A stretch of 64,000 nucleotides of DNA from Antedon mediterranea (Eukaryota > Animalia > Echinodermata). Below the pieces are notes generated by a model. It worked only from the letters and a program-made list of their open reading frames with translations, was not told the origin of the DNA and searched no databases. The translations under genes were made by a program, and so were the position numbers. Below, one piece after another: positions 4,259 to 62,200 of the stretch; position 1 is the first letter of the stretch; every line of letters starts with the position of its first letter. The DNA is taken from NCBI RefSeq assembly GCF_964355755.1, contig NC_092678.1, forward strand, positions 12,894,352 to 12,958,351, in the 5' to 3' direction.

Positions 4259-4559
4259 ATTTAAAGTTGAGAGAACGTCATTACCTTATAAAAAAAAATA
4301 ACAAAACACTACTTTAAAATACGAAATACAATGAATCATTAATGATTAAGTTTTATATGCCTGTACTGAATAGCATTGTACTACCTATACTCATTAATTA
4401 AAAAGCTAAAACTGGATTGTACTAAGATTGATTTTTTGACAAGACCAACAAGCATAGAAAAATATCCCACACAGATAATATTGCTCATTTCAGATTACAT
4501 GCTGGACTGATAGTTAAGTACAGTATGTATAGTATCAGTATAGTATCAATTTTGTCTAA

Positions 4560-12199: not shown

Positions 12200-12565
12200 A
12201 TAGGCTATATAGGCATTAGGCCTAGGTAAGGTAGCATACCCATACATCATCATATAGAATTATAGGCTATCTATAGCTTACCTACATACATACGTAACAT
12301 AGGCTAGCACCTAGCTAGTTAGGCTTGGGTAGTAGGCTAGGGCCTTAGCTGGCCTAGCCCCCTTCTTAGGCCTATATGATGGCTAGGTCTAGTCAGGCCT
12401 ATCCTAGAGGGCCAGGCCTAGCTAGGCCTATCCTAGAGGGTTAGGCCTAGCTAGGCCTCTAGGCTAGCCTAGGCCTAGGCTTACCTAGGCCTAGCTTAGC
12501 CTAGGCTAGTAGAAGTAGGCCTAGGCCTCCTAGGCTAGGCCTAGCCGTAGCTAGGCTAGGCCTAA
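12200..12565. repeat. TAGGCC/CTAG-rich low-complexity palindromic tract
   Basis: Dense interspersed TAGGCCTA and GCTAG units. Confidence 0.8.
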
Positions 12566-17250: not shown

Positions 17251-17283
17251 TGCTTTATAACAACATTCTTAGCTGTAATACGC

Positions 17284-19597
17284 CTAAGAGGAATCGCTTC
17301 TGGACATTATTGTTAATAGATACTCATTTCCATTTTTAGTACGTGGTAATGGACCCACACAATCAACAATAACCCTTGAAAATGGTTCACCGAATGCAGG
17401 AATAGGCTTAAGTGGGGCTACTGGAACCTTTTGATTAGGCTTCCCCACTACCTGACACGCATGACAAGATTTACAATAGTTAGACACATCTTTTCTAAGA
17501 CCTGACCAAAATAAATGCCTGAGAATTTTGTCTACCGTTTTATTGACACCTAAATGCCCTGAAAGAGGATCATCGTGCGCAATACCAATAATATCCTGAC
17601 GGTATCCACTAGGAATAACTATCTGGTGAATCTCATTCCAAACATCACTACTTGGAATATCTGGTGGCCTCCACTTACGCATAAGTATGCCATCCTTTAT
17701 ATTATAACAAACAGGAACAATAGACATTTTCTCTACAGAAAGAGCTTTCTGACCAAATGACACCAAATCAGGATCTTTACTCTGCTCTTCCACTAACCTG
17801 GACCGATTGAGAACTGTCGGACCGAAATCACACACTTTTATGTGCTGTTGTTCAGCCTGGGCAGTGTGTGACTCGGGACCTGAGCAGACAGCCTCTTGGG
17901 AAACGCGATCCGTAATGTCTCCGTAAAAACTATCACATAAGTCAATACTCTCATCCTCATCTATGGTTATATTTGCCATAGATCGCGTCACCGCACATGA
18001 TTGAAACACATGTGATAATTCTTTCTCTAAACACACCGTGCTTTCGTCTTCAACAGGACTCTTGCACACAACCGGTTCTACTGTCACTCTGTCTCCGGCC
18101 AAATCATTCCCCAAAAGGAGGGTGAAACCCCATACTGGAAGACTCGGAATGACACCGACAACAAAATCTCCGCTAACAATATCTGTTTCAATCCGAATTA
18201 CATGAAGTGGGACTTCCTTAAATGAGCACACTTGCTCCAGCAGAAGACTCGTTTGAAAATGACAATGTCGATTCTATTATCAGGGATTGTAACGCCCCTG
18301 TGTCTCTTAAGACACGAACTTTACTCAGATTCACATCGTTGATCAATGCTACAGAACCAGTAGAGAGGAAAGGCTTAAATAGCTTTCGCACTTTTTCCGG
18401 ACCTGAAGATTGGATCAACTTCTCACATTCATCAACGTCATGACTCGCTGTCACTTTCAACGGGACTGTATTTACTAACGTGTTTGGAAGTGATTGGGGT
18501 TTCTTATTATCCCCTTTAGATTTGCTTTGAAACAGCCAGCAATCTGCCTTTATATGACCCTTTTTCTTGCAGTAAAAACAAGTTCTGACAAATTTACTAC
18601 TACTATTAACTGTAGTTTTCTGACTTTGGACCTTAGAATCATCAACAGATTTGGAAACCGATTTGGTATCCACCACCTTGTGCGTGAGCACATAATTATC
18701 GGCAACAGAAGCCGCTTTCATTAAATTATCAACTTTCTGCTCCTCTAGATGTGTACAAACTTCACTTAGGGCAACAAGATTTAAACTCCTCAACTAACAT
18801 AAGCTCACGAAGCTTTTCAAATTCACCCTTTACTCCTTCCGAACTACACCATCTATCAAAAAGAATCTGCTTCTTACGTGCAAATTCTGTAAACGTTTGA
18901 TCATAAGGTTTACCTAAGTTCCTAAATTTCTGACGATACGCCTCTGGAACTAACTCATAAGCTGACAAAACAGCAGTTTTAACCGCATCATAGCCTTCAC
19001 ATTGATCATCAGCCAATGCAGAAAATACCTCTTGGGCTTTACCCACAAGAGCAGTTTGTAACAACACAGTCTAGTAGGCCACTTTAATCTATTAGCAATT
19101 TTCTCAAAAGCTAAAAAATATGTCTCTACCTCGTCCTCATTAAACTTGGGAACCCATTTAATATTCTGAGTAATCTCTGAATCATTAGGTGTAGAAACCC
19201 GTGTGGTGTGACCCATTTGGTTAGCTAATTCTAATTTCCTTAACTCAAATTCATGTTTTTCTTTTTCCATTTCTCTTTGAGTTTGCATCTCTATTTTTCT
19301 TTTTTCAAAAATCAATTTTTCACGTTCCAACTCAATTCTAGCCAACTCGACCTCATTCCCCGCAGTTTTTACGGTAATTAAACCAACATGATTTCCAATC
19401 ACATTTATCAAGTCATATTTATTCATGGAATCATTTATAGATGCTCCAACCCTAGTATCTAGGAGTCGCAAACGCTCCTCTGATAGCTGAGCTACCACCT
19501 CAATGGACATGCTATCCAAAAATTCCTCGTCAAAATCACTTTCTGACATAGTTTCTATTCGAAACAAACAAACAAAAACACAGGTTAAAATAACCAA
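17284..19597 (-). pseudogene. gag: Gypsy gag (CCHC zinc knuckle), protease and integrase zinc finger, frameshifted
   Basis: ORFs 18950-19597, 18762-19067, 18218-18793 (CFYCKKKGHIKADC; LRDTGA) and 17284-18231 (LLGND; H..GHLG..C..C). Confidence 0.88.
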
Positions 19598-19975
19598 TAT
19601 GACGATAATTAAGGCACCAGTAATAAATTACCTGCCAAGCCCACACAGTATTAAACCTACCGTGCGCCGTGGTCTCAATAACTAGACCCCTAAAATCAAA
19701 GCCAAACAGACTTCTACTATCACAGGCAAGCCTACACAAGCCTAAAACAACACCACAGTGTACTGGCTCGACGACCGCCAAACCTCGTTCGTTATAAAAC
19801 GCGCTTCTAAACCTAAAACCAGCTTAGAATAAACAACTAAAATTACCATTAGTTCGATCTACAACTACAATTCCGTACTTTGTTCTCCGATGACCCCCCA
19901 ATTTGTTACGGGCTCGCTCGTTAGGCTGAAACCAACAATAAGAACATAACAAAACACGTTGTAGTTGTGACAAAC

Positions 19976-23697: not shown

Positions 23698-23769
23698 CCC
23701 CCCAACCGAGACTCGAACTCGGGCCGCCTGCTTGAAATGCAGATGTCCTAACCATTAGACCACTGGGGC
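23698..23769 (-). tRNA. tRNA-Glu(TTC)-like gene, pseudogene or SINE head
   Basis: GCCCCAG-TG-GTCTAATGGTTAGGAC-A-TCTGC-AT-TTC-AA-GCAGG-..-CCGAG-TTCGAGT-CTCGG-TTGGGGG, followed by a T5 terminator. The 1:72 mismatch and A at position 32 argue against a fully functional tRNA. Confidence 0.7.
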
Positions 23770-25015: not shown

Positions 25016-25221
25016 ATACACTGTTATTCACTGTATGGTATTTATACTTCATTTTACGAAATAAGAAAGAATGAATAGTGCTGTTTAATAATATAACATG
25101 GTTAGAATAATAGCTACTAAATAGGCATACAGATCCGTTGTATTTATTCTCGTATACTGTATTTTACAGTAATTTTAAACATTTTCTTTTATAAGGTAAT
25201 GATGTTCTCTCATCATTAAAT

Positions 25222-26268
25222 ATGAGTTTTTCAACGTTGTTAAACATTTTTGCATTTCTGCTATATTCTACAATATTTCTGCTAACCATCCAAGCATCTG
25301 ACAATGATGTGTTACTTGAATTTAAACCTCGTGAAAATGAAGATCTGTACCATATCAGAATCCATAGTACAACAGGAGATATCTACATAGGGGCCTACAA
25401 CTCACTGTACAGACTGTCAGAAGATTTTACTATTATTTATAGTATTTCAACATGTTCATCAGGTGATTGCAATAATATTAATAAAATATTAGAAATTGAT
25501 TATGATCATGATAGATTGATCACGTGTGGAGGGGGTAACAATGGAAGATGTGAAGGAAGGTCTCTTGTGGATTTAACTTTAGATGGAAGTGATGTATTTG
25601 ATGGAATAGTAAGTGAACTGTCAGCAGTTGGAATCATTGCACCTGGAGTGTTGGGTGATGGTACTGATGATAGAGATGATGTTTTTAAACAAAATTTGTT
25701 ATATGTTTCATCTGGACATACATCATTGGATCCCGTAGAATATTCTTACAATTATGTTTATTCTAGAAGACGTCTTGATAATGAACGGCTATTTCAAATT
25801 TCTAACTCTGTATTCAATGCTATCTCACCATCCTATAATAACCTTATTCAATTCAAAACAGCATTTACTTATAAAGGATACACTCACTTTGCTGCATTTA
25901 GACCTGATGATACTGATTACTTTCATTCTCGACTGAGTCGTGTTTGTCAAGACAACTCATTCTTCACATTTTCCGAGGTCTACATTCGTTGTGTAGTTAA
26001 TCATGTAGATTACAACTTGATACAAGGCATGTCTATGGGTCCTGTAGGATCTGAATTGGCTACCTCACTACTACAAGCTGGAGATAATGTATTGTATGGA
26101 GTATTTGCTAAAGGTGATGGAAGTGGAGTTGCAACTGGACAATCTGCAGTGTGTATTTACAAGTGGAATGACATAGAAGATGCATTCTTCAAAGCTTTAA
26201 ATGGATGTATAAACGTTAATAATGATGTTCATACTCTAGACTATGCTGAGGATGCTGATTGTCCACAG
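25222..26268 (+). CDS. Large first coding exon of plexin-like paralog 2 (signal peptide + most of Sema domain)
   Basis: ORF 25222..26298. Acceptor AG at 25194-95, donor GT at 26269-70. Clear homolog of ORF 3206..4258. Confidence 0.92.
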
Positions 26269-29200
26269 GTATGCATTGTATTCTTTTTGTCTTCATAACC
26301 AATCAGTCATACTAAAGTGAAGCATGTACATAGTTGTTTTCACAAGAAGAACATTTCTTTATTGCATGTTTAATATAGGTTACATCTGCATTGGTATTAC
26401 CTGTTTGTTGTAATTATAATTTCATTATAATAGCATATAAATATCTGAATAACGATGAAGAAGTTTCTATATTGAATGATACTGTACCTCAAAAATATTA
26501 AATTAAAAAAATATACAATGCTGCACACTAAACAGCTTCATTCTTTTCTTATAGAATATTAATAATAAACTAAAACATTTTAATATTTTGAAAATCAATC
26601 AAAAGCATTTTTAAATGGGTCTATTAATCATAAATTAGACCCTTAAAAGGTCCCTTACAACATCTTTAATTAATTTTATATAAAGAATTAACAATAAAAG
26701 CGTTTTATAAATATCATACTTAGGCTATATGCCTATTTCTATTGATGTATGTGTGATGACATGTTATAACAAATACTGCCTAAAATGGAAAACAATACAA
26801 ACAAAACATGTGTATGACTTTTAAAATTTGACAATACAAAAAAACATATTTGGTATCTTGGGCTTAGATCAACACGAGACATTGCTCAGTTTGTAGATTT
26901 ATACTACCAAGCGTGATTAATAAAACGAACGTCTTCGACACTAAGAGGTCCGCCGAACTTAGTTTAAATCTATATAAAAGTACATCGTAAGTGTATGGTG
27001 TAAAATTCATCAACAATTAAATTGAGTTTTTTACAAAAAAAAAGAAAACAACAAGCACTTCATTGTTATTCTTATTTGACCAATATTTATTTTGGCTTCC
27101 ATTATATTGGAAATGAAAATACTGATATTTGTTTGGTGGTGTTTGGAATGCGATAAGCACTATCGTCAATGGAGAGATCATATAACTCAAGATTTGTATG
27201 CCTGTGGTATAGAGAACATGTCAGTAGTTATTTTCGTGTAACATGCAAAGGTGAGCAAAATCATATAGTAATCCAGCTATGACACAGATACATCGGACGA
27301 TGAAGGCAATGACCAGTGCGCCTGTCTGATACCATCAGATATTGACGTTGGATTTTACATGTCATTACATCCGCTTCATTATAATTTCAACGCTCACTGT
27401 ATTTTTTTTCGGAAATATTTTAAAGCCTATAGTATCAATTTTTGTTAAATTTTGAATGCAGTGTTTTTGTCACAAAACATGGAAATTGTAAAAAATCTCT
27501 TTGAGTTACCGTCAGAACATAACATTAGGCCTATATCATATTAGAGTTTTTCGAAGCCATAAAGAATAAGGATAGCATTCATTTTTTTTTTATAAGCAAT
27601 TGAGTTTGGTTCCCTACACCTCATGTCTGTCTAATTTCAGGAACTGTCAATTTTAGCATCCTACTACAAAAATGATTTATCTAAAATATTCAACGTGTTT
27701 CTGGTATGTTCTTTGAAATGTCTGTCAACATTTTCGACATCTGCAGACGATGTGCTTCTTCAGTTTAAACCTAATAAAAAGAAGATCTGTATCATATTCG
27801 AATTCACAATACATACAACAGAAGGAGGGCTCGTGCTGAGCCTAAGCTCAAGTGAGGTTCTTGTAATAGTCCGGTATCGGATAGTGATAGGGCTATCTGT
27901 TGGATACAAAGAAACTATTTATTGTGTTGCTGTCTTATAACAATGCCGTAAAGAAAAGAGAAATGATAGGCCTAATATATAAGTGTGATAACGATAATAA
28001 AAATAAAAGTGTATCGTAATAAATTCCCCTATCTTTGATATCTTTCATTATAGTCTCGTATGCCCATTTGGGAGGAAGGAGAGACGATGGCGTTCAGTGG
28101 ATCCCCCCGGTCACTTGTATATAAACCAAACGGGGGGGGGGGGGGGTGCAGCAGCCACTTCAAGACATGAGGCACTACCTGTTTTACTGAAAAATACTAC
28201 GGACTTGAACTATAAGTCCAGGAGTATTAGACAAAAAAGGGCCAAAGGTAGAAATAAATATGCTAAAGCTGAATTTTTCAGGATAGGTCCCCAATGTTGT
28301 CTGGAACAACATACTAAAAGTCCCCGGGTTTCCCCGTTGTGCTTCAACCTGATTGGGCCATTTTTCAAAATGGCGGCCATCTTAACATTATTTACCATAT
28401 TTTGACAAACAGTAGGTGTAAGTAAACAATTTTGGTGTCAAAATACTCAGAAGACCAATATTTATATTCACTGTAATGGAGAAGTTTTTAAAAAAATGGA
28501 CTTTGACCATAAATTTGGATTATCTCAATATCTCATCAACGACTGGCCGTAGAGAGTTCAAAATTGTCCCAAATTATTCAGAATGCCCAACTTTCTATTC
28601 ACTCTAATGAAAGTAAAATACTAAATTCCTTTAGAAACCTTCTGTTCTGACCTTTGAACTATTGACCTAAGCATATTTTAATTTTATAGACATCTTAGTG
28701 ATCGATAGGAGTACATAAGTGAAATTGGTGTCAAAATACTCAGAAGACCAATATTTATATTCACTGTAATGGAGAAGTTTTTAAAAAAATGACCGGAAAT
28801 GCATGTTTTGAACTTTGACCCTAAATTTGGATTATCTCAATATCTCATCAACAACTGGCCGTAGAGACTTCAAAGTTGTCCCAAATTATTCGGAATGCCC
28901 AACTTTCTATCTACTTTAATGAAAGAAAAATACCAAAAACCTTTAGAAACCTTCTATTTTGACCTTTGAACCCTTGATCTGGTCATATTTTATAGAATAG
29001 AAAGTTGGGCATTCTGAATAATTTGGGACAACTTTGAAGTCTCTACGGCCAGTTGTTGATGAGATATTGAGATAATCCAAATTTAGGGTCAAATATCAAA
29101 ACAGGCATTTCTGACCATTTTTTGTTAAACTTTTTCATTACAGTGAATATAAATATCTATAAAACTCTAGAACTAAGAAGTTAAAAAGAAAACTTCTTGC

Positions 29201-32200
29201 ATCCGAGTTTCAAAACAAACTCAGGATTATTGGCAATGATTGCCGTAAGCAATCAACGGTAATGGCCTGAAAGGGACATCACAAATTTGGTCTACCTGCA
29301 GACTTAGTCATTTCAACAAAAATGACTCTACCTTCGGATGACTTCAGGGCTTTTAGGAAACCCTGCAGAAGGTTCGTTGGGACTTATAACAAGAATCAGG
29401 GCAACACCTCTGATTCAGTTGTTAAAAATAATTGTCGACTTTCTAAAGGAGAGAAAAAACGTCTTTCCCGAGGACCCCAAACCAAGGCAGGTCGGCGCAC
29501 AACAACTATCTTTTGATATAGAGTCTTTTTCCAGAAGATTACGATTACGTGAATATTTTGCTGATTTAGACAGCAGCACGATGCAAAACGAAGGCAACAT
29601 TACCAAATTTAAACCAAATAGTTCCTGGAATCCACCTAAAAATCGTTGTCCAGCTTTAGAAACATTTATCCAGGCTATTGAGGAGGATGTACAAAACTAC
29701 GTCCCGAGTCCAGATAAACGTGACATTCTCCCAAAACAAGAGAGGCAGGCCAGTTGCGTCAGCGTAATGATATCATCATTAAACCCGCTGATAAAGGTTC
29801 TGCCATTGTTGCTATGGACATCAAATTTTATGAAAAGGAATCCTTAAGACAGCCAAACAATCCTCTTCATTATATATCGTAAACGGACCCCTCCCCCCCC
29901 CCCGGAAATTGCGGATAAGGTGGCCAAATCTGTTTCTGTGATGGTAAAAAAACACTCTATCGATCCTAAGATTGGACTTCATTTGGAACAGGTCAATCCA
30001 GTTCCAGGCAGATTTTATTTCCTACCTAAAATCCACAAAGCAGGCAATCCTGGTAGACCCATTATTTCGGGCAATGGCACTGCTACAGAGGAAATTTCTG
30101 AATATGGGGATGATTTACTTAGACCATATGTGACTAATCTCCCTTCATACATTCAGAACTCCACGGGCTTTATCCGCAAAATTAACCAAATTTCTGACTA
30201 CATTAGATGTTTCATCGTTGTATACGAATATCCCTCACAAAGAAGGAGCTGACGCATGTATTTTAAATTACAAGCAAATTACAGGCAAAACGCCTACTAA
30301 AGCTCATTTATGAGAACAGGTCATGTTGATTTTAACAACAACAATTTTATTTACCTTCAAATTCATGGCACAGCGATGGGCACAAATGGCCTCATCTTTT
30401 GCAAATTTATTTATGGGACAATTTGAGGCCAAATGTCTGTCCCTCCAACCTAATAAACCACTTTTTTTGGTTTTATTTATTTATTCAAGATCCAACAGTG
30501 TAAAGAAAAAACAGGATCGCCATAAATAAAATATATATAGATACATTGACGACATCTGCATGATCTGGACCCATGGTGAAGTTAATTTGTAATTTTTTCT
30601 TCTCAATATTAATTCAGCCCACCCAACTATCAAATTTACAGCTACCAAATCCACTAGTAGCGTTGATTTTTTTATCCGTAAACCTGCGGATAAAAATATG
30701 TACCTGCTCTCTAGCAGTTGTCATCCCCAACACTGTACTAAAAACATACCGAACAGTAAAGCATTACGTGTCAGACGCATCTGTTCTTCAGATTTAGATT
30801 TTCAGAATCGTACCGAAGAACTAACCGGACATCTCCGGAATAGAAATTACAAGAAGGAATGCATCAAAACTGCTATAAAGAAAGCAAAAAATATTCCTCG
30901 ATGTCAAACACTGACGTACAAACTACGTCAGCCAAATTCGACTGGTGCCATTGGTCACAACCTATCGCCCTAGGTTGCCTCCATTACGGGCTATTAATTT
31001 ATTGAGAAACATATGCTCATTCTAAAGTCCACAGAACCTCCCAGAACTGTTTTTCCGGAACCACCCATTATTGCATTTCGTAGACCTCCCAACCTTCGTG
31101 ATATATTAGTCAGATCCTAATTTAATTGTGAAATCTCATATTCTAATGAAACAGTTCATTGATTTTAAGTTATGTTTACACTATCAAACTAGTTTGACAA
31201 AATAAAAAGTCACCTTTGAGGCAAATCTTGCAAAACTTGTTCATTGGTTGGTTCTAATGAAAAATTTAAGAGTAACCAAACTGGCCGCATTATTCGGATA
31301 AGACAATCAATTAATATCGTTTAACCAAAAACGTCATTTATCTCATATACTGTAATATTTGTGGAAAACAGTACGTCGGAGAAAAAAAAAATTTACCCGA
31401 GTCTGTACTTGTTATATATATTTGGCTTATATACGTTTTAAGTGAAACTCTTAAACTATTTTTCCTTTTAGAATGGTAATGATCATTTTATCGTCATTGA
31501 TGTGATATATTTTTTGTTTTGTGTTAGTTAAACTTTATTAAATTAAACATGTTGTTTTAGGTGTTTTTTTTGCTGCTGGTGGTATCTACAATATCTAAGC
31601 TACGCCATACTTGGGGTAAATGGGGTCTCTAATCGAACTTTAGAGGGGTCTGCCAGGGCCAAGGCAGTGTACTAGTCTGTAATAGGTCATTTGGTATTGC
31701 TTACAATGTGCTAAATTATGTAACATTGGTTGCTGGTGGTATCTATAATATCTAAGCTGGGCTAGTGGGGGAAAGGAGAGTAGTCTAACTTCGCAGGTGT
31801 CTGCGATGCAGCAGACAATTAGTCTGTTGTCATCCATTTAGTATTGTATGAACACAACTTGTTCATTTGGCATTAATTTTGAGTGGTACCTCACTCATCT
31901 ATGCTAACCCCATTTTAGGCCCTCCCTGGGGGAGAAGGGGGGGGGGGGGTCTGGCGGGCCTTTTACAGCAGACAAAAGTCTGTCATTTGTGATACTGTTA
32001 TAAGGATGCCAATGGGCATCCCATGGTGGTAAAATTAGGTGCTATCTCTCTCATCTAACCGGGGCCGATTTTTTAGCACGTTTTGGGCCCCCCCCCCCCA
32101 GTCTAGACGCAGCAGGGTGTACCCGGCAGACTCCCATTTTCATTGACTTCAAGTGACCCACAACACACTTAAATAGTCAGATATTGGTACCTAGCTCATC

Positions 32201-35200: not shown

Positions 35201-38200
35201 GGTACCGAAAAGACTAAATATCAAAACTACAATGAGTGAAAGGATAATTAAACATAACTAGATAAGAGGTGCCGTTTCAATTTAAAAGGAAAACTCTTCT
35301 TAGACAAAGCACTTTTTATATTAACTGGTACGTTATCCCAAAGTTTAGGACCAGTGAACTTAATGCTATGTTTAAAAGAAGTAGTTTTAAAAAAAGGAAT
35401 ACGTATTTGATTTGCGCTTCGAGTACTGTGGTTATGAAAATTAAGATTGAAACTAAATAAATCATTAAAGTGTGATGGCAGGATCGAGTTTAGCCATGAA
35501 TAGAGGAAAACACTTTGTTGAAGATGGTTAATATCCTGAATTTTAAGAAGACCAAATGAAGAAAATAAAGGATTGGAATGGGATAAAGGAGAGCATTTGC
35601 TATGTATCTTACGGTTTTCTTTTGGATCAATAACAGTTTGTTTAAGTAGAAAGAATCGTATCGCGGTTGTTGTGTAATCAGATCACTTCTTGTTGCTATA
35701 CGCTTGGGTGCACACGGAACAACAAATTTAACTGATGAATTATTCATGTATATTTTGTGACGTTTCATGAGGGGGTCCCCAACTTATGTACGAAAAAAAA
35801 AATCGCATCCTGGGTACCACAAGATACGTGTTGGTGGTGTGTTCCAATTTTGGTTTCATTGCATTTGTCAACAAGTATCTAAGGTAAAATATAATTGGTT
35901 AAAGAATGATGATCCTAGTTTTTCTGGTATTGCAGAACGTGTTCTGCATTAGCAAACAAAATTATGACCTTACTCGGCGACATTAAAATCGGACAGGAAA
36001 GAATGCAATCGGATATTGATGAGGTGAAGAAAGATGTGAAAGTAAATAAAGATCAGATTAGAATCTTGACCAAGAAGTCTAGTAAGGTAGATTATCATGT
36101 TGGTAAATTTAATGAGGAGGTTTCTGAGCTTGTTGATTAAAATGTGAAGATATTAATGAAAGATCGAAAGGAAAAAAAAATGTAATCTTTGGATTTGAAG
36201 AGAGCTCTAGTCCAGATACTGCCGTAAAGAAATTATATGATCATGATTTTATTAAGAACCTAATAGTCCGGTGGCAGGAGAAATCACCACTCGAAAGGGG
36301 ACAAATTGCCATCCAACTTTTCTAGACCAAAATTTTCCGTACATTACGAATATGGAAGGTAATCGATCAGGATAGGAAGCTTTTTCTAGATATAAGGGTC
36401 AAAGTTCAAAATTGACCAATTACAACAATGTATTATGTATATGTATTATAACACATTTATTGCAGCACAATTTGGTCTTTTATTACATTTTTATGATTAT
36501 AGGTGTTTATTAATAATAATAAACAGTATTTATATAGCGCCTAATTGATCACTGACCCCTCTAGGTACTTTACATTAGACCTTAACTAATGGTAATAAAC
36601 TATCCCCCGCCGGACACCATTCCGGTATTTCTTAGTCGAGGTTTCGGGGATGGAGACAATCAATAATGTGGAAAAAAAAGTAACTAAGCTTAACTATGCT
36701 TAACTAAGGTAAAACTATCCCCCGCCGGACACCATCCCGGTATTTCTGAGTCATGGTTTCGGGGCCAGAATTAAGAATAGAGAGTAAATGAAGCATGCAC
36801 TAACTTAAGCTACGGTTAAACTATCCTCCGCCGGACACCATCCCGGTATTTCTGAGTCAAGGTTTCGGGGAAGGAATACATGAATGAATGAATAAGTTAA
36901 TTAATACCGGATGAGAACAGATGGGCTTTCAGTCGTGATTTAAAAATACTGACTGGCTTGCTTTATCAACGCTTCTATGAATGGATGACTAGTTGGGAGC
37001 AGTAACGCTAGAGTACCAAACCCAGTACCGTTTTTTATTACGATCATGCGGAAAATTACCTCACGACGTAAGAAAGCAACGAGCTGCTTTTCATATACAA
37101 CAAATAGACTTAAAGACATTGCCAATTGCCTACTAATGAACATTATATAACCTAAAATTATCATCACAATATTAATTTAGTTATACAGAATTGTAGAATA
37201 AACGATTGTCTTGGTTGTAAATTTGTAAATTGAAGTCTTACTATAATATTTTTTGGGGGAAATGATAAAAGCGATAAAATTGGTAAAAAGAAATTAGCAA
37301 TCACGTTATTTTTTTCGTAGATTTAAAGCTACCAAAGCTGAAATTACCAATGTGCCTGAACAGTTACAACTTTAAAACGTTGCAAAAGTTAAAAAATAGT
37401 TGGTAGCAAAAAACATTAAAGATAAAAAGACAATAATATGCTTACTGTTATCATAATACGTTGTACGTTTGTGAAAGTCTTTCAGTTTTACTGCTGCTGA
37501 TGTTCAGTCATTGATGAGTCTTCCAAATGACGGTAGGCAACTATACAGACGTTATTCACAAGGTACCTACACAGAAGCAGCAGTATCAGAGGCATTGCTA
37601 ACAGTTAATGATAAAATACTAACATCAGTCACTACAGAAATTGAAGAGAATCGTACAATAGCATTCATAGGCACAGGTAATGGACAACTTATTAAGGTTA
37701 GTAGGCCTACTACGAATTGTTCAATTTGAAATTTTGAAATTGATTATAAAGTTACAGAGATACAAATACACTTTTTTATTTCAATATAACAAGTGTCCAC
37801 AAAGAAATCGCAAAGGGCACGTAAACAAATAATGTATGTCTTTTAAAACTCACTTGGGGACAACAAAGAAAAAATGAAGTATGATTGTTATGTTTTGTGT
37901 ATCAGTATTTTCCCTGTCGACTTAATTTATATAAATATGATTACAATTTTGGCATTTCCTTCAGCAAAGAAAAAAAAACCAACATTCGTCGGATGTGCTG
38001 CATCGGATGAACATTCTTTACATGACCTAATTAGGAATAGCTCTTAGCATTCCTACAATAATGAGGCAGGTCCTAAGTATTGTGAAATAAGTTATTTTCT
38101 TCCAATTTGTCAGGCTGAGTTAACAAACAAAACATCATCTAGACCGTATGAAACTATCACCATAGATACAGGTCAAGAGGTCAGATCAGACACATTTATA

Positions 38201-50200: not shown

Positions 50201-53200
50201 AAACTTAGGCCTAAATCTATTTTTAAAAACCACAAAACAAAAATTGATAGAGATATTATTTTAAAATGAATGGATGTATCTAGCTTGTTACTTAATAATT
50301 ATTTCTACCAATACCATGTTAGTTAATTCATATACACTAGAATTCTCGATAACAACTCCACTTCCAAAAACTTGTTGTTTCATATGGAACGCCGTTTACG
50401 CAACATTTCGATGATATGAATTGTATGACGCGATATGTGAATGAAATGCATCGATATGAATTGAATGGCGCGATATTTGAATGAAATGTTTTGAATTGAA
50501 TGCTTTGAATTGAATATTTTGAATGAAATGTTTTGAATAAAATGTTTTGAATGCAATGTTTTGAATGAAATTTTTTGAATGAAATGTTTTGAATGAAATG
50601 TTTTGAATGAAATGTTTTGAATGTACCCTCATCTCCTTTCCACGCTGTCATCAATATGGATCCTTTACAGAGAATGCTAACAGACCTGAAACAGTGTAAT
50701 ACATATTTCCAAATCCAGGTCTGTAAGGATTCTCTGTAAAGGCAACGTGGAAAAGAGATGAGGGTACCCAGGCTTAGGCATAAGAGGTTGAGAAAAAAAT
50801 CGCGAACGGGAATGACATACGCCGCCAATAGTTTGACTTTTCAATTCAATTCAAACATTTCATTCAAAAAATTTCATTCAAAACATTTCGTTCAGAACAT
50901 TTCGTTCAAAACATTTCATTCAAAACATTTCATTCAAAACAATAAATTCAAAGCATTCAATTCATTCATATATCGCGCCATTCAATTCATATCGATGCAT
51001 TTCATTCACATATCGCGTCATAAAATTCATATCATCGAAATGTTGCGTAAACGGCGTTCCATAGTTTCAGGAAGTTTTTGTGGTATAATTTTCCTGTAAA
51101 TGTCATATTTCATTTTGGCATTATTGTGTACTTTTAATGGCTTTTTGGAAAACATTTCTTTCTATCTAGTATGACTACACAGCTAAGGACAAGCAGGAAG
51201 TAAACGCATATATTAAAGTATTTTGGAACGACAATGAAATTGACAATGCTTATCAAGGTTGGTTTCACCTGATTGTTTACATTGATAAATATCATTAAAT
51301 CAATTATTTACTTGGTAAACATAACATCATACATTTTGTTATCATATATCCACATACCCCTGTTCAATTTTCCATTAAAAAAAAATGTAACTCCTGAAAC
51401 AAATACAGTATTCCTAGTACCTCTTTAACAACCCTATTTTTATATTGACTGTTTCTGCTTATTTTGTGCTCCCAAAAAACCAGTAAATCAGTGTGCGGTG
51501 TATAGTGGACAAAAAAAACGGTAAGATTACCCAAAATGCTGAGAACCGCTCAAGCTTTGGAATGCTACTGTAGTTCACCCAAGGTTAACTACAATCAATC
51601 AAATTATGCACAAACATTTATTTATTTTGTGAATGCCATTTAACAACCACAAATCTGTCTCATTTATGCTACAAATTAGGGATAATTTATTCAAACAGTT
51701 ATTAACCAAAAAAAAGAACATTATACAGTTATTAACAGCTTAAAAACAGTCAACTGAAAATTCTTTAAGCTCGCCCAAACTGTCATATTCTTGAAAGTCT
51801 GGTTTTCCAAATAAATTTTACATACAGTTTTAGTTAAGTATAAACAGAATTCAACGCTTTTGTTCAACTTGATTTCAGACAAACTGTCCACATGTAAATA
51901 CAATAAAAACATTTGAACATTATGATAGGTTCCTGGTTCAGATATTCAGAGATGTGGTTTCAGCTGACACTGACAGACAATTAAGTGTTTTTAACATAGT
52001 ACAATTGTTCTTTAATGAACATATTAAATGGTTGTTTAAATTTTAAACAGGAAGTTTAACAACAATTTACTTTACTAAGTATTGACTCAACACCACATTG
52101 TTCAAACAACAGGATGTATATAATTACAGTCAATTTGTTTGTATACTATAAACCCCTACTTCATTCCCTTTATTGTTCTGGTGTCATTCTGTGCAAATAA
52201 TATTATACCCATAATGGATGGATAATGTGTATTTGTTTGAATAATTATTAGTTACAGTTTTTAGTTTATCCTTAAATGTTATCATGACATATGTCTTGTC
52301 ATAATACATATATAATATTAATGTTATCTACTCTCATCCAACCAGGCTTTGAGACGTGTTTTCAAAACCTGGTAAATAAAACCAATTTATTAAATATCAT
52401 GTGTTAGCATACAGCCATTTTATACGAACGCTGTCAAAATATGATAAAAATATGTATCATTCTTTTTTTATGTTGTTTTTGGCATTTTAATATTCAAAAC
52501 AAAGTCACAAGATCATAACTGATAGTGACACCTTCGTAATATGCTAATGATATGATATTTTGTCAGTTAATGCTTCATTTTTACATTTAATTTCTCTACT
52601 TTTATTTACCAGTCACATTGTACAAGTGTAGTGTTCAACGTCCAGACTGCAGTCGATGCTATTCAATGAACACCACTAGGTCTGGACTTGATTGTGTCTG
52701 GTGTACTGGAGACCAATGTTCCTACAGTCCATTGTGTTCATCAATAGTGAATGAATGTCCATCACCTGTCATTATTCAGGTAATTTGAATCATTTTATCT
52801 TCCTTTAAAATCCAGCACTCTAGCCTAACTTAAATTTGTTTGAAATGTTGTTTGCTAGTCGCCCTCTATTACTCGTTCATCTATATATAAATTTACGTAA
52901 GGGCAAAATTCGGTAAATCGCGCCTTACTTTAGAATGTAAAGTTGGTTCGTACTTTCGGTACTGATTTTAACCACCTGATGTAACCCTGTTTACTAATTA
53001 AATTAAGTTAGATAATTAGTTATTGACGATTAAAACGAATTTAGGTTCAACGATTTGCCCCAGATAGGGGTGTTTTCCGATCGTGGTATACACTGTCTAA
53101 TGGATGTCCATCTTGAAAAATACCCGCCACAAAAATGCGAGGAGGCTTCGCATTTTCCTATCTCCTCCTACGATAATTGTTTTTAATAGCTGAAAACCGG

Positions 53201-56200
53201 TTGAACAGCTCGAGTACAGTATCATAATGTTGAAGACAGGCCGGTTTTCCTAAAAAAATACTATTTTGATAGATTTAATATACGTTTATACAAATGTATT
53301 GATTTGCGATGAATGGAACATTCCAATCTCTGTGTCGTTCCACAAGTGTCTATTCCCTCAGGCGTCGTAAAGGAAAGTACTGTATACTCATAACAGAAAT
53401 TCGATCCATTTTTTTTTCAATCTGTGCTGCAGAGGTTGGATATAATTTTTTTTAAACGGATAATGAGCTAGCGTTTTCAGTCACCGTAATTTAATATTTA
53501 TTACCGATTAAATCGAATTTATGATTTGCCCCGAATAGAGGTGGTTTTCACAAATTGTTTAACATTATATATAAACATACGTCGTAGTGTATCGTTACAT
53601 GTACTGTACTATTTCAATCGACTACGACGGTGATAGTTAAGTTTCAACAAAGTATTACATCGCAATGTTTTACTGTGTTTAGTGGTATATTATTTGTAAA
53701 ACATGTTAATTAATATTTCGTTACAAAATAAAGAATATATTTAAAAATTGTTCCTCTTTGCACCCATCCTCTTCCCCATCTCTCAACCATAATGTTACAT
53801 ACAAAACACAAATTAAGTTTGTTTAAATTTGACTTAAACAATTGGTCTCATTTTGTGACAACTTTCTCTTTCGGAAGTAATTCTCAGGGTGCTAATTTTA
53901 GTTGAGTACATAAATCACAGTGTCTATTTAATCGTTCATGTAAACGACATATATTATTGTCCTGCATTATTGTACATTTGAAATCGCCAGTTTTTTAACG
54001 CTGAAATTACTGTGTATTCGAGAACCATCTGTGGGCACGACCTAGATGGTACGCTCGCTTCGCTCGCGTACCATCTAGTAGTGTGTAATTTACATTACAG
54101 TATATATTTATCGCAGAAAGGGCAGAACATTTAGTCTGAAAATTAGAAGATTAGAAGAAAAGGGTACTGAAAGAGTATATGATATTTGAGCAAATTGTTT
54201 TACTCCAAAATATCCAATGGTTTTTTTTTTGTGATTATACCAATCATGTTTGTTTTTTTTTAAATATCCATCATGCTTTTATGTTTTACTAATATTATTT
54301 TCAGACTCTTCCCATCTCAGTTGCTACAGTAACTACTCAACCTGAACCTGATTTCACAGAGGTCATTGAACTGTTCGGAACTGATTTTGGACAGATGATG
54401 TCAGATATTGACAACTTTATGATAGATAACAAAGAATGTGTAATAGTTGCTGATGGATTTAACATAGCTTTACAAAGGTATTTTAAATAAAATTTAATTT
54501 AACATTAATTATGTAGCACTAAGTCTGTACTTGTTTCTGGTGAGATCCTTCAAGCTGTACATAAGCCAAGTTTCATACAGGACCAACGGAATAACATCTC
54601 ATCCGGAAGATAGTGCACTATATTCATGTAATCCAACCCATAAGTTAGAACACAGAGAGATGGCGATTGAACCGTGAACCAAACCTATTTCATGGTTCAG
54701 TGCACAACACAGGTAATACCCTCAGTTTAACCGAATATGCCTCTCTTTCTGTGTATTGTGATAATGTGTGTATGGACAACAAGTAAATATATTATGATTG
54801 CTACTGTATGTATTCAGCTTTCACTGATGTAATGCAAAACAGATCATAATATAAGTAGTTGATACCCATCCTACAGACGGGTATCTTTGACAACTCTGTG
54901 CTACCATGTTAAGATGCCTCAAATTTGTCTCATCTTATACAAACATTTTCTAAAAGCATTTTTATGGAAAACCACCACTAACATGAGATGAAATACACAA
55001 CACTTCTGTAACTTATCACACATTTATTTATTTATTTATTTTATGTCTTTAGGCAATGTGGCCAAGGATTACCAATAGTGAATTAATCACTGTCCTATCA
55101 CATAGGTGGTAATCCCCCTGATACAGGGGCTATTGTGTGAACCAGTTCACCGGGGTAACCCCCTACTCTTTTTCGAATAATGAACTGGGTTTCTTTAAAG
55201 TACACACAGGTCATAACTGTGTACACTCGCCCTACGGTTTATAGTCCTTATCCGAGAAGACTTGTTCCACCACCAGAACTAGGAGCGAGTCGGCCTCGAA
55301 CCCTTGCCGAGGTTGTTGTTGGCTCTTTAGGTACGGTAAACGGCGCCCCTGCCTTAACCGTAACCGTAACATAATCCATAAACTATTTGATTGGTTCGTT
55401 TATTAAGCATCATGTGCCATGCATTATTGCGATCCATCCTCAACATTGGGAGTAACATTGCATGTTATTTTTTTTATTATAATTATTTTTGTGGTGTATA
55501 TCAGTAAAAAAGAAAATTCTATTATTTACTATACACAGTGTGAAATGTAAAGCTCCTGTGTTTGATAGTGTCTCTCAACGTGAAGTCATCATAACTGTTC
55601 AAGGAAAGACAAGCGCACCTGTAGTCATACTCTATCAGGTATATTTTTTCACTCAAATTTCACAATTGTTTTAATCTTGCCTTAATGTAGAAAGAAGAGT
55701 CAACCTTAATAAATATTTTTATATAATTACTAAAGTTATTTTAAAATGTTTATTCTACAGTAATCATGTATATTTGTTGTAAACTTGTGGTATTCATGAT
55801 ATTAAATGAACACTAGAACCAGCCAAGAGTGAAGATACATTCACTTATTTCTTCTACTGTACGTTCACTCTTTTCTTCTACTTTAACTCTTTTCTTCTAC
55901 TTTCACTCTTTTCTTCTACTTTCACTTTTTTCTTCTACTTTCACTTTTTTCTTCTACTTTTACTCTTTTTTCTACATTCACACCTGCTAGAACGAGATAA
56001 GAGTGAAATTAATGCAATTTCACTCTTTTCTTCTACTTTCACACCTGCTAGAACGAGATAAGAGTGAAATTAATGCAATTTCACTCTTTTCTTCTACTTT
56101 CACACCTGCTAGAACAAGATAAGAGTGAAATTAATGCAATTTCACTCTTTTCTTCTACTTTCACACCTGCTAAAACAAGATAAGAGTGAAATTAATGCAA

Positions 56201-59200
56201 TTTCACTCTTTTTTCTACTTTCATTCCTGCTAGAACAAGATAAGAGTTAAATTAATGCAATTTCACTCTTTTCTTCTACTTTCACACCTGCTAGAACAAG
56301 ATAAGAGTAAAATTAATGCAATTTCACTCTTTTTTCTACTTTCACTCCTGCTATAACAAGATAAGAGTGAAATTAATGCAATTTCACTCTTTTCGTCTAC
56401 TTTCATTCCTGCTAGAACAAGATAAGAGTGAAATTAATGCAATTTCACTCTTTTCGTCTACTTTCACTCCTGCTAGAACAAGATAAAAGTGAAATTAATG
56501 CAATTTTACTCTTCTCTTCTACTTTCATTCCTACTAGTAAAAGAAAAGATATTGTCGTGAGGTGGTTTCCCGATTAATCGTACGATCAAAACGGTACTGG
56601 GTATGATCAACTAGCGTTCGTGTTCCCACCGAATCATCCATTCATAGAAGTACTGATGAAGATATCAATCTGTGGCGACAATAGAATGGACCCGAGACCT
56701 CATGAGGTAATTTCCCGATTGATCGTAATCAAAACGGTACTGGGTTTGGTCTACTAGCGTTCCTGCTCCCAACCAGTACATCCATTCATAGAAGCCTTAA
56801 TGAAGTAAGCCTACCTGGTGGTGGCCATAGAACGGTCCCGAGATAACGACTATACTTCGGCTTTAGTCGATAGAAGATTGAATAAATTGTTAGAGATAGA
56901 GTATACGATGTTATGATTATGTGTAGATATGTGATTTGTTCTTTTTATTCCAATGATGTTATGTATTTAATAAATTTGTTATATCAAATAATTAAATTAT
57001 CGTAGATTGCATATTATGCGATGAATATTATTTAATACATTTTTGATATATTATTATTATTATATTAATAAAAAAGATATTTGTTAGTATAAATTAAAAA
57101 ATATAGATATAAGGAAGAAAAGCAAAGAGATTATGGAGCGGCTGTACCAGAATATACAACACTAAGTATTGTAAAGTTAATATATTAAAAATTTAGGCGA
57201 TCTTGTCAAAGGTCAAGCGCCTTCAGCCTGCCACGTTTCGATATTCAATATTGAACTTGACCTGACGTGGTTCCACAATATCTTTATATGAAAATGGTAG
57301 AGTGGATAGAAACATAAATTAATTTAAATTTAAAATGTTTACCTTAAACTGGTTTTGAACTGAATCGGTTGATGTCTTATCGTTGTATGTATGATTTGGT
57401 TTAAATTATGTTCGATAAAAGTGCGTATGCGTATAGAATGAAATGCTCGCGTTACGATGTACGCGTGTAATGCTGTTTATATCGTATAATAGATAAAGGA
57501 TGAAAATATAGAAGGTATGATGGTAGAAAAATAAAAAGCAGTTTAGGATGTAGAAATAGGAAAAGTTTGTTAGTGCAAAAGTGTAGATTTTGAATGTGAG
57601 AAATGACTAGAAAGTACATTCCTGCTAGAGTCCTATGTCGGCACCTAGGCCTATATAACGTCATGAGGTAATTTCCCGATTGATCGTAATCAAAACGGTA
57701 CTGGGTTTGGTCTACTAGCGTTCCTGCTCCCAACCAGTACATCCATTCATAGAAGCCTTAATGAAGTAAGCCTACCTGGTGGTGGCCATAGAACGGTCCC
57801 GAGATAACGACTATACTTCGGCTTTAGTCGATAGAAGATTGAATAAATTGTTAGAGATAGAGTATACGATGTTATGATTATGTGTAGATATGTGATTTGT
57901 TCTTTTTATTCCAATGATGTTATGTATTTAATAAATTTGTTATATCAAATAATTAAATTATCGTAGATTGCATATTATGCGATGAATATTATTTAATAAA
58001 TTTTTGATATATTATTATTATTATATTAATAAAAAAGATATTTGTTAGTATAAATTAAAAAATATAGATATAAGGAAGAAAAGCAAAGAGATTATGGAGC
58101 GGCTGTACCAGAATATACAACACTAAGTATTGTAAAGTTAATATATTAAAAATTTAGGCGATCTTGTCAAAGGTCAAGCGCCTTCAGCCTGCCACGTTTC
58201 GATATTCAATATTGAACTTGACCTGACGTGGTTCCACAATATCTTTATATGAAAATGGTAGAGTGGATAGAAACATAAATTAATTTAAATTTAAAATGTT
58301 TACCTTAAACTGGTTTTGAACTGAATCGGTTGATGTCTTATCGTTGTATGTATGATTTGGTTTAAATTATGTTCGATAAAAGTGCGTATGCGTATAGAAT
58401 GAAATGCTCGCGTTACGATGTACGCGTGTAATGCTGTTTATATCGTATAATAGATAAAGGATGAAAATACAGAAGGTATGATGGTAGAAAAATAAAAAGC
58501 AGTTTAGGATGTAGAAATAGGAAAAGTTTGTTAGTGCAAAAGTGTAGATTTTGAATGTGAGAAATGACTAGAAAGTACATTCCTGCTAGAGTCCTATGTC
58601 GGCACCTAGGCCTATATAACGTCATGAGGTAATTTCCCGATTGATCGTAATCAAAACGGTACTGGGTTTGGTCTACTAGCGTTCCTGCTCCCAACCAGTA
58701 CATCCATTCATAGAAGCCTTAATGAAGTAAGCCTACCTGGTGGTGGCCATAGAACGGTCCCGAGGTCAAGTTCAATATTGAATATCGAAACGTGGCAGGC
58801 TGAAGGCGCTTGACCTTTGACAAGATCGCCTAAATTTTTAATATATTAACTTTACAATACTTAGTGTTGTATATTCTGGTACAGCCGCTCCATAATCTCT
58901 TTGCTTTTCTTCCTTATATCTATATTTTTTAATTTATACTAACAAATATCTTTTTTATTAATATAATAATAATAATATATTAAAAATTTATTAAATAATA
59001 TTCATCGCATAATATGCAATCTACGATAATTTAATTAATTGATATAGGCTAGGCCTAACAAATTTATTAAATACATAACATCATTTGAATAAAAAGAACA
59101 AATCACATATCTACACATAATCATAACATCGTATACTCTATCTCTAACAATTTATTCAATCTTCTATCGACTAAAGCCGAAGTATAGTCGTTATCTCGGG

Positions 59201-62200
59201 ACCGTTCTATGGCCACCACCAGGTAGGCTTACTTCATTAAGGCTTCTATGAATGGATGTACTGGTTGGGAGCAGGAACGCTAGTAGACCAAACCCAGTAC
59301 CGAATTGATTACGATCAATCGGGAAATTACCTCATGACCACACAGTACACAACTTGACATCGCGCACATTGTATACGCTAGCATTTCATTCTAATACGCT
59401 CACGCACTTTATCGAACATACTTTTAAACCAAACCAAAACCATACAACGACAAGACATCCATCGATTCAGTTCAATACCATTTTTAGGTAAATTTTGAAT
59501 TAATTATTATTTTCTATCAATTCTACCATTTTCATATAAAGATATTGTGGAACCACGTCAGGTCAAGTTCAATATTGAATATCGAAACGTGGCAGGCTGA
59601 AGGCGCTTGACCTTTGACAAGATCGCCTAAATTTTTAGTTTTTAACTTTACAATACTTAGTGTTGTATATTCTGGTACAGCCGCTCCATGATCTCTTTGC
59701 TTTTCTTCCTTATATCTTTACTCTTTTTAAAAGTTTTACTAACGATTTTTATTTTATTTTATTATAGGCTATTTATATTTTTTGCTTTATGTACACGACA
59801 ACTAACGATCAAATAACAGTTTTTTCACATCGCAACTTATACAACGTAATTTTGAAAACTACAACCATTTTTTTCTATATACATACAACGTACATTTCTA
59901 TTTTAACAAAAACATTTTTCTAAACTTTCTATTATTTAAAAGTCGAAGATAGCCAGGTCTCGGGTCCATTCTATTGTCGCCACAGATTGATATCTTCATC
60001 AGTACTTCTATGAATGGATGATTCGGTGGGAACACGAACGCTAGTTGATCATACCCAGTACCGTTTTGATCGTACGATTAATCGGGAAACCACCTCACGA
60101 CATTATACAGGCCTAGGTGCCGACATAGATCTCTAGTGGGAGTTAACCATCATAGTCATTCCTCACATTCAAAATCTTTCCTGTAACTAACAACCCATTC
60201 CTTTTTCTATACATCCTATACTACTTATTTATATCCTACCTTTATACCTATGTTATTTTCGCTCTACTACAATGTACGATACACTTATAATCTTACATGT
60301 ACCACACAGTACACAACTTGACATCGCGCACATTGTATACGCTAGCATTTCATTCTAATACGCTCACGCACTTTATCGAACATACTTTTAAACCAAACCA
60401 AAACCATACAACGACAAGACATCCATCGATTCAGTTCAATACCATTTTTAGGTAAATTTTGAATTAATTATTATTTTCTATCAATTCTACCATTTTCATA
60501 TAAAGATATTGTGGAACCACGTCAGGTCAAGTTCAATATTGAATATCGAAACGTGGCAGGCTGAAGGCGCTTGACCTTTGACAAGATCGCCTAAATTTTT
60601 AGTTTTTAACTTTACAATACTTAGTGTTGTATATTCTGGTACAGCCGCTCCATGATCTCTTTGCTTTTCTTCCTTATATCTTTACTCTTTTTAAAAGTTT
60701 TACTAACGATTTTTATTTTATTTTATTATAGGCTATTTATATTTTTTGCTTTATGTACACGACAACTAACGATCAAATAACAGTTTTTTCACATCGCAAC
60801 TTATACAACGTAATTTTGAAAACTACAACCATTTTTTTCTATATACATACAACGTACATTTCTATTTTAACAAAAACATTTTTCTAAACTTTCTATTATT
60901 TAAAAGTCGAAGATAGCCAGGTCTCGGGTCCATTCTATTGTCGCCACAGATTGATATCTTCATCAGTACTTCTATGAATGGATGATTCGGTGGGAACACG
61001 AACGCTAGTTGATCATACCCAGTACCGTTTTGATCGTACGATTAATCGGGAAACCACCTCACGACATTATACAGGCCTAGGTGCCGACATAGATCTCTAG
61101 TGGGAGTTAACCATCATAGTCATTCCTCACATTCAAAATCTTTCCTGTAACTAACAACCCATTCCTTTTTCTATACATCCTATACTACTTATTTATATCC
61201 TACCTTTATACCTATGTTATTTTCGCTCTACTACAATGTACGATACACTTATAATCTTACATGTACCACACAGTACACAACTTGACATCGCGCACATTGT
61301 ATACGCTAGCATTTCATTCTAATACGCTCACGCACTTTATCGAACATACTTTTAAACCAAACCAAAACCATACAACGACAAGACATCCATCGATTCAGTT
61401 CAATACCATTTTTAGGTAAATTTTGAATTAATTATTATTTTCTATCAATTCTACCATTTTCATATAAAGATATTGTGGAACCACGTCAGGTCAAGTTCAA
61501 TATTGAATATCGAAACGTGGCAGGCTGAAGGCGCTTGACCTTTGACAAGATCGCCTAAATTTTTAGTTTTTAACTTTACAATACTTAGTGTTGTATATTC
61601 TGGTACAGCCGCTCCATGATCTCTTTGCTTTTCTTCCTTATATCTTTACTCTTTTTAAAAGTTTTACTAACGATTTTTATTTTATTTTATTATAGGCTAT
61701 TTATATTTTTTGCTTTATGTACACGACAACTAACGATCAAATAACAGTTTTTTCACATCGCAACTTATACAACGTAATTTTGAAAACTACAACCATTTTT
61801 TTCTATATACATACAACGTACATTTCTATTTTAACAAAAACATTTTTCTAAACTTTCTATTATTTAAAAGTCGAAGATAGCCAGGTCTCGGGTCCATTCT
61901 ATTGTCGCCACAGATTGATATCTTCATCAGTACTTCTATGAATGGATGATTCGGTGGGAACACGAACGCTAGTTGATCATACCCAGTACCGTTTTGATCG
62001 TACGATTAATCGGGAAACCACCTTACGACATTAACAATTTTATGAAATATTTTCCGCTGACCAATTTTCATACTATAAATATATATTATATATATGTTGT
62101 TATGTTTGTATATAAACATTTGTTTTTTTTTTAAATATTAAAAACAATTATTAATCATACAGATTGTAATACCTGTGTTTTATTAGTATATATTTATTAA

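Follow-up and report, generated by a model that had tools for sequence, protein, structure and literature searches.

Does a self-cleaved RNA leave a recognizable trace when it is copied back into an animal genome? The question arises at a repeat locus in a 64,000-nt stretch of Antedon mediterranea DNA (the window), where one genomic copy begins at the nucleotide that follows a predicted hammerhead cleavage site. The role of hammerhead ribozymes in Penelope-like elements has been described as unclear (PMC8557442), and in one in vitro system cleavage was dispensable (PMC11167929); here and below, published work is represented by excerpts of the cited papers. Copies that start at the cut would show germ-line reverse transcription of cleaved RNA and, if that reading is true, the genome would preserve in vivo evidence that a ribozyme of this form, known only from environmental RNA, has cleaved. 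What is surprising here is the form of the ribozyme and its host, rather than the junction. With a host among animal genomes, type-SGC hammerheads gain a biological context that is known; a further implication is that a class of retrozyme-like repeats escapes standard type I descriptors.

The locus is built from a non-coding repeat with a unit of ~960 nt, arranged as partial tandems in two head-to-head arms. We number the unit from the first base after GUC. BLAST with the unit resolved 56549-62033 into four segments of two subtypes, A (961 nt) and B (964 nt), and located an older copy elsewhere in the window:

56549-56700, minus strand: B-type 5'-truncated piece, unit 396-547, forming the outer left arm.
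56697-58764, minus strand: A-type array of 2.15 units (422-961, 1-961 and 1-564/567), the units 99.6-100% identical, running through two intact predicted ribozymes.
58763-59338, plus strand: A-type copy that opens at the predicted cut site and reaches the fixed 3' end, unit 1-565.
59333-62033, plus strand: B-type units of 964 nt, 2.8 of them in tandem (737-964, two complete units and 1-546), which form the outer right arm and run through three intact predicted ribozymes.
36955-37069, plus strand: short copy, older and 5'-truncated, that covers unit 453-567, shares the 3' end of the others and is 86% identical to A.

A common homologous 3' end (unit 546-567) is found in all five of these segments, and their 5' ends differ. 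The subtypes are ~74% identical overall; identity is 42-53% at unit 161-360, and the two are identical over 116 nt around the ribozyme. GC content is 32-34% over 56001-62000, in a window of 30-40% GC. On either strand of a dimer, the longest ATG frame spans 96 aa in A and 52 aa in B. An open reading frame with reverse transcriptase (RT) and GIY-YIG endonuclease is absent from the repeat unit, which can therefore only be non-autonomous. Four features of a Penelope-mobilized repeat are present, namely a fixed 3' end, 5' truncation, partial tandems and an inverted 5' copy. The reported hallmarks of Penelope-like elements combine a 3' end that is fixed with 5' ends that are ragged, and partial tandems with an inverted copy alongside (PMC8557442, PMC3846280), and inverted 5'-truncated copies beside partial tandems have a specific precedent among them (PMC8557442). 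Where a target-site duplication would lie, the trinucleotide ATT stands at both outer borders of the insertion, and the ATT on the right is also the element's own next bases.

Each tandem unit contains one complete predicted ribozyme, two in the minus-strand array and three in the plus-strand array. From its sequence, the motif is predicted to be a hammerhead of type SGC (non-circularly permuted), and we found in it every testable sequence feature of that type. The intact copies and the fold around them are as follows:

59553-59628, plus strand: intact predicted hammerhead in the B array, drawn on the topology of PMC10085705.
60517-60592, plus strand: second intact predicted hammerhead (motif scan and BLAST).
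61481-61556, plus strand: third intact predicted hammerhead (motif scan and BLAST).
58156-58231, minus strand: intact predicted hammerhead in the A array (motif scan and BLAST).
57195-57270, minus strand: intact predicted hammerhead in the A array (motif scan and BLAST).
59537-59699, plus strand: predicted long-range helix around the ribozyme (59537-59551 with ~59685-59699), from minimum-free-energy folds of both subtypes, with one A-U to G-U change.

One short stretch contains, in succession, the cleavage block (S), the GAAA block (G) and the core block (C). In the first of the intact copies listed (59553-59628), stem III pairs 59553-58 with 59587-92 (6 pairs), stem I pairs 59560-67 with 59606-13 (8-9 pairs) and stem II, with 3 pairs only, joins 59581-83 to 59621-23. 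A further helix of 5 pairs (59601-05/59624-28) connects the free sides of stems I and II. C17 lies at 59559 and the predicted cut falls between 59559 and 59560, followed by a hairpin (59568-79), GAAA (59584-87) and the core UUGACAA (59614-20). With UUGACAA, GAAA and GUC, the conserved core nucleotides are all in place (the 3-8 pair, G5 A6 A9, G12 A13 A14, A15.1-U16.1 and H17), the 3-8 pair being U3-A8 in place of C3-G8. A U3-A8 core is a natural, active variant (PMC3088659) and is present in Penelope-like hammerheads (PMC4209133). The hairpin stretch, 59568-59579 (unit +9 to +20), is also a perfect 12-nt palindrome just inside the predicted cut; palindromes have been described at the 5' ends of pseudo-LTRs in rotifer Penelopes (PMC3846280).

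A scan of the window took in each of the six possible block orders and required 14 stem pairs or more; its only matches were the five intact copies, all of them SGC. Of 10,000 dinucleotide-shuffled units, 2 matched a loose descriptor and 0 the strict one. The canonical readings were part of the motif scan, which returned no type I, II or III hammerhead fold in the window. Hairpin, HDV-like and twister readings were set aside by eye and on the lack of an Rfam match; Rfam gave none on the repeat at gathering scores, nor at E up to 5 over 57200-60600. Relatives of the motif had 0 matches in metagenome contigs and prokaryote genomes and no genuine one in viral contigs, where five matches to a gapped pattern were rejected as chance, having neither the other blocks nor BLAST similarity. 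We saw no compensatory change in any stem: A equals B over the motif, and among the 40 of 292 run differences listed, those from +1 to +72 in four runs fall only at 59599-59600, in an unpaired linker. Nested folding favors a competing hairpin that buries the core, as computed by a folding program that cannot form pseudoknots.

If these motifs cleave, the start of the plus-strand A copy is where their product would begin. In all five intact copies CCACGUC stands directly before AGGUCAAG, which puts the cut sites before 59560, 60524 and 61488 on the plus strand and before 58224 and 57263 on the minus strand. Two features describe the plus-strand copy at this point:

58763-58764, no strand: head-to-head junction, with AG common to both arms (2-nt microhomology; sequence and BLAST).
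58763-58831, plus strand: 3' cleavage product of the predicted hammerhead, with stem I at 58763-58770, GAAA at 58787-58790 and the core UUGACAA at 58817-58823.

The original prediction held that this copy starts at 58763, the first nucleotide after GUC, that a G rather than the C of intact copies precedes it, and that a 2-nt AG overlap leaves 0-2 nt of ambiguity. Sequence and BLAST bear out each of these points. The first base, 58763, is indeed the first base after GUC and opens AGGTCAAG, base 58762 is G, and the arms have exactly AG (58763-58764) in common, so that the junction reads ..GAACGGTCCCG AG GTCAAGTTC... Given the G at 58762 and the AG overlap, the copy starts at +1, +2 or +3. Because it has neither the 5' strand of stem III nor GUC, it would be unable to cut again.

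The improbability that had been claimed for a random break at this place survives in weaker form. Under a uniform null, the chance that one 5' end falls in the 3-nt interval is 0.31%, and the relevant figure, which asks whether any of the five 5' ends does so, is 1.6%; it carries no correction for a coincidence that was picked after the fact in one of many windows scanned. A random 5' truncation that happened to land on the site and was noticed afterwards is a reading with something behind it. The remaining four 5' ends of the window fall at other unit positions (B396, A422-424, A453 and B737), and with many windows scanned, events at the 1.6% level are expected. We nevertheless judge chance to be a distinctly improbable explanation, on the evidence of copies in other samples.

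Contigs of four of the 17 runs listed were aligned on 58190-60560: X1 and X5 from one organism (organism A), X6 from a second (organism B) and X10 from a third (organism C). That X5 is RNA is only a guess. The repeat was found in runs of several organisms and is high-copy there. Its fixed 3' end recurs in other copies with many dissimilar flanks, seen as loose ends at 58625 (22 contigs) and 60100 (13) in X1 and at 60098 (18) in X6. Among the 24 loose-end positions listed (857 more exist), none lies at the predicted cut; with clear peaks at the 3' end and none there, any peak of ends at the cut must be smaller.

The aligned pieces listed, 32 of 4,175 from 30 records, are a selected set, which again leaves room for chance. 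The base that follows the cut is covered by seven of the 30 listed records. The alignment runs on through the site in four of these (records 9, 12, 14 and 15) and stops in the other three, which have unaligned letters before it. Record 26 of X6 stops at -2, with 334 nt unaligned upstream; record 24 of X6 and record 18 of X5 stop at 58763 (+1), with 675 and 67 nt unaligned upstream. Since the reference itself begins at +1, records 18 and 24 can hide starts up to ~15-20 nt further upstream, and this slack makes record 26 the sharper case. We simulated such alignments with BLAST, which may behave differently from the aligner used for the contigs. Intact copies with 67 nt upstream aligned best at 58760-64 in 0-34 of 200 cases over six settings, copies that start up to 15-20 nt upstream often aligned best at 58763, and intact copies with a long upstream part aligned best on the minus arm, with a second piece at 58763 possible. 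Records 24 and 26 have depths of 36 and 45, similar to those of other long flank-bearing X6 contigs (25-39), and are therefore probably single loci.

These three records come from two other samples and lose homology within ~17 nt of the site, in a stretch that is identical between the subtypes, which speaks against chance. So does the position of the other listed 5' boundaries, which fall mostly at unit 323-408, where alignability drops. Additionally, summed contig depth is 6-11x higher just downstream of the cut than ~10-125 nt upstream in three runs; depth is not copy number, and this step is suggestive only. The claim that the junction lends the ribozyme independent support can accordingly be kept in part: the homology of three contigs from other runs stops at or near the site, and the window itself supplies one junction. 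We conclude that the junction is modest, mechanistically apt evidence for in vivo cutting by the predicted ribozyme. As a hint, and an indirect one, a copy start within two bases of the predicted cut suggests that animals may have a working ribozyme of this rare form.

RNA could also begin near this site for another reason, such as an internal transcription start at or near the front edge of the ribozyme (-7) or a pause of the enzyme, and copies would then gather there regardless of cutting. We regard this as unlikely, if deserving of serious attention. Penelope pseudo-LTRs do contain a promoter and start site (PMC8557442, PMC3846280), and in the SGC fold just 7 nt separate the motif's edge from the cut, too few for records 18 and 24 to distinguish the two. 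The two resolved ends, however, lie at +1 to +3 (window) and at -2 (record 26) rather than at -7, and an RNA that started at +1 would be without its own first ribozyme. A stop imposed by RNA structure would also be unexpected at +1, which lies in the 5' strand of stem I and not at the 3' foot of a helix.

The reading we favor, and consider probable, is that a Penelope-type RT ran off the 5' end of an RNA cut after GUC by the predicted hammerhead, and that the resulting cDNA end annealed to the cDNA of the opposite arm. The RT presumably came from another element. Each unit would carry the predicted pseudoknotted S-G-C hammerhead on the strand that is copied; it is on the ribozyme strand that the element's 3' end is fixed and its 5' ends are ragged. 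An AT-rich target would be nicked on both strands, each priming cDNA synthesis at the fixed site. Multimeric segments would derive from uncut multimers or re-ligated circles, and each arm would include one jump from a B RNA to the start site of an A RNA, with 1-2 nt of microhomology at 56697-56700 and 59333-59338. The last segment of the right arm would stem from cleaved linear RNA and cover all 565 nt between the start site and the cut. The right cDNA would terminate with the complement of AGG and the left one with GAG, so that the 3' ends would pair by two bases; CT and AG would anneal and prime each other's second strand, yielding the inversion. Twin priming of L1 involves a comparable pairing of two cDNA ends.

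The original prediction had an RT run to the 5' end of a self-cleaved RNA and then switch template. The run-off gains support from the SGC geometry, the strand and the three contigs. The switch needs adjusting, since a move onto a second sense RNA should yield a head-to-tail join; the join here is head-to-head, which would fit annealing of two first-strand cDNA 3' ends through AG/CT. Published systems offer partial parallels: the Anolis enzyme nicks and extends both target strands, with an internal start in the RNA downstream of the hammerhead (PMC11167929), and R2 5' junctions lie at the ribozyme cut and show chance microhomology (PMC3774820).

Evidence against a cleaved template is found in the same insertion. 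Five intact predicted sites were copied through, so cleaved linear RNA can have been at most one of the templates. Near-identical multimers that run past five intact sites would fit uncut multimers or circles, and for such multimers circle copying has been proposed by Cervera and de la Pena. In the excerpts on the Anolis element in vitro, uncut RNA is the dominant substrate and no reads begin or end at the cut (PMC11167929). By analogy, we would take this use of uncut RNA, with no ends at the cut, as the main counterweight to a cleaved template.

An inversion might also arise in ways unrelated to any RNA end, through self-priming fold-back on an antisense template or a later DNA rearrangement, for example of an A pair into an older B pair. 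We think this very improbable. Antisense self-priming has been proposed for palindromic head-to-head Penelope junctions (PMC3846280), the B-A-A-B symmetry fits a nested insertion, and there is imperfect similarity (GAAC, GTC) before AG on both sides. No palindrome is centered on the junction, however, and the arms differ in unit start and in sequence. By BLAST, 5 substitutions, two of them within the mirrored part, and an 11-nt insertion set the plus-strand A copy apart from the minus-strand array, so this copy is not a fold-back of the neighboring array; these private variants also indicate that the segment came from a separate RNA molecule. A nested insertion, for its part, would still leave an A copy starting at the cut. 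The same private variants, in the mirrored part as elsewhere, and the asymmetric start weigh against an assembly artefact within the near-identical inverted repeat, and a chimera would have no reason to land on the cut site. Assemblers are troubled by such structures (PMC8557442), and none of the 32 contig pieces listed of 4,175 spans the junction; even so, we find an artefact scarcely credible.

Returning to run-off from cleaved RNA, a wider claim can be framed. The repeat family, in at least three related organisms, may encode an active U3-A8 SGC hammerhead whose cleaved linear RNA is a regular Penelope-type template, with cut-to-start monomers of ~550-565 nt forming a major class beside circle-copied multimers. 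We offer this tentatively, as a plausible extension that we lean slightly against.

While the predicted ribozyme closely resembles a published form, it departs from that form in host and in detail. Type-SGC hammerheads are represented by HRIMA-1 and SGC variants from metatranscriptomes (Eckert et al. 2023, PMC10085705). The motif shares with them its block order, stems I-III, the extra I/II helix and a length of ~75 nt. The published examples are metatranscriptomic, from no genome of a known organism, whereas this one is a repeat on an animal chromosome; in the excerpts, the motifs are stated to be absent from genomes of known organisms, with the exception of one bacterial GCS candidate. The core here is UUGACAA (U3-A8), and the three atypical sequences of 583 that the excerpts give include none such. 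The linker between stems I and II is 13 nt with a hairpin, as against ~3 nt in the published ones. Our literature search, which covered few subscription papers, returned no paper placing SGC hammerheads in animal genomes or repeats, and none on genomic copies that start at a hammerhead cut.

In its overall organization the repeat is like the non-LTR retrozymes of animals, which are non-coding, low-GC tandems with one hammerhead per unit; Penelope-like mobilization has been proposed for them, and their near-identical multimers fit circle copying (PMC7229834; bioRxiv 10.64898/2026.07.22.740005). Those retrozymes are defined by type I hammerheads, whereas SGC is predicted here, and their units are mostly 150-450 nt (up to 972, bioRxiv 10.64898/2026.07.22.740005), compared with 961-964 nt. 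By its sequence features, the repeat appears to work like a Penelope-moved non-LTR retrozyme, yet we do not file it as a member, since it lacks the type I hammerhead that defines the group.

Endonuclease-bearing Penelope-like elements, such as Poseidon of Anolis and the Naiads (PMC11167929, PMC8557442, PMC3846280, PMC4209133), also have a fixed 3' end downstream of the ribozyme and 5' truncation, together with partial tandems, a head-to-head inverted copy and AT-rich flanks. Unlike them, the unit contains no RT or endonuclease gene. Naiads are described, in the excerpts, as being without canonical hammerheads, some having 'half cores' (PMC8557442), and by eye the 3' ends of three hemichordate Naiads contain no copy of the SGC motif. 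In R2 elements with HDV-like ribozymes, self-cleavage sets the RNA 5' end, and a cut at the element end leads to chance-microhomology junctions much as here (PMC3774820). R2 differs in its ribozyme and element class and in being site-specific; the cut defines every full-length R2 copy, whereas most sites in this insertion are read through.

The 5' ends of both minus-strand segments lie within ~6 nt of each other in homologous coordinates (B396/397, equivalent to ~A418/419, and A422-424), beside a common TCTCGGG (56697-56700, 58762-58764). This clustering is possibly a second preferred start or stop of the RNA. We looked for a second hammerhead at unit 396-424, where these two other 5' ends fall, and the six-order motif scan found none. 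By eye, the reverse strand around unit ~396-424 weakly resembles a short motif that two Ptychodera Naiad consensus sequences have close to their 5' end.

Judging from a neighboring coding match, the insertion is probably in an intron of a plexin-like gene. The surroundings also include a decayed Penelope-like element, which we take to be Neptune-like by its motifs. Pfam gave no match on this element, and BLAST of the repeat unit against it revealed no common sequence. The main neighboring features are:

62227-62364, plus strand: IPT/TIG exon of the plexin-like host gene, just right of the insertion (PF01833, E 2e-10).
3206-4285, minus strand, and 25195-26298, plus strand: a pair of paralogous Sema-domain exons in inverted orientation, 81-89% identical, belonging to a plexin-like gene cluster.
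~29330-31390, plus strand: decayed Penelope-like element interrupted by frameshifts and stops, in which RT motifs precede a cysteine linker and a GIY-YIG-like end.
15049-19627, minus strand: LTR-retrotransposon-like coding region with several ORFs (by eye).
5619-7753, plus strand: LINE-like coding region with several ORFs (by eye).
1794-1912, minus strand: 5S rRNA-like match, probably repeat-derived (Rfam).
23698-23769, minus strand: tRNA-like match, probably repeat-derived (Rfam).
36581-36871: 106-nt tandem of 2.6 copies, just upstream of the short copy at 36955-37069.
50462-50967: inverted pair of 14-nt minisatellite arrays.

Satellites of 19 nt and 61 nt (55836-56549) reach the left end of the insertion, and the right flank is not satellite. 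With satellite on the left flank only, the target may have lost some sequence. The 11-nt insertion found in the plus-strand A copy alone (~59045-59055) consists of TAGGC(C) words, like those of a simple array at 12367-12564.
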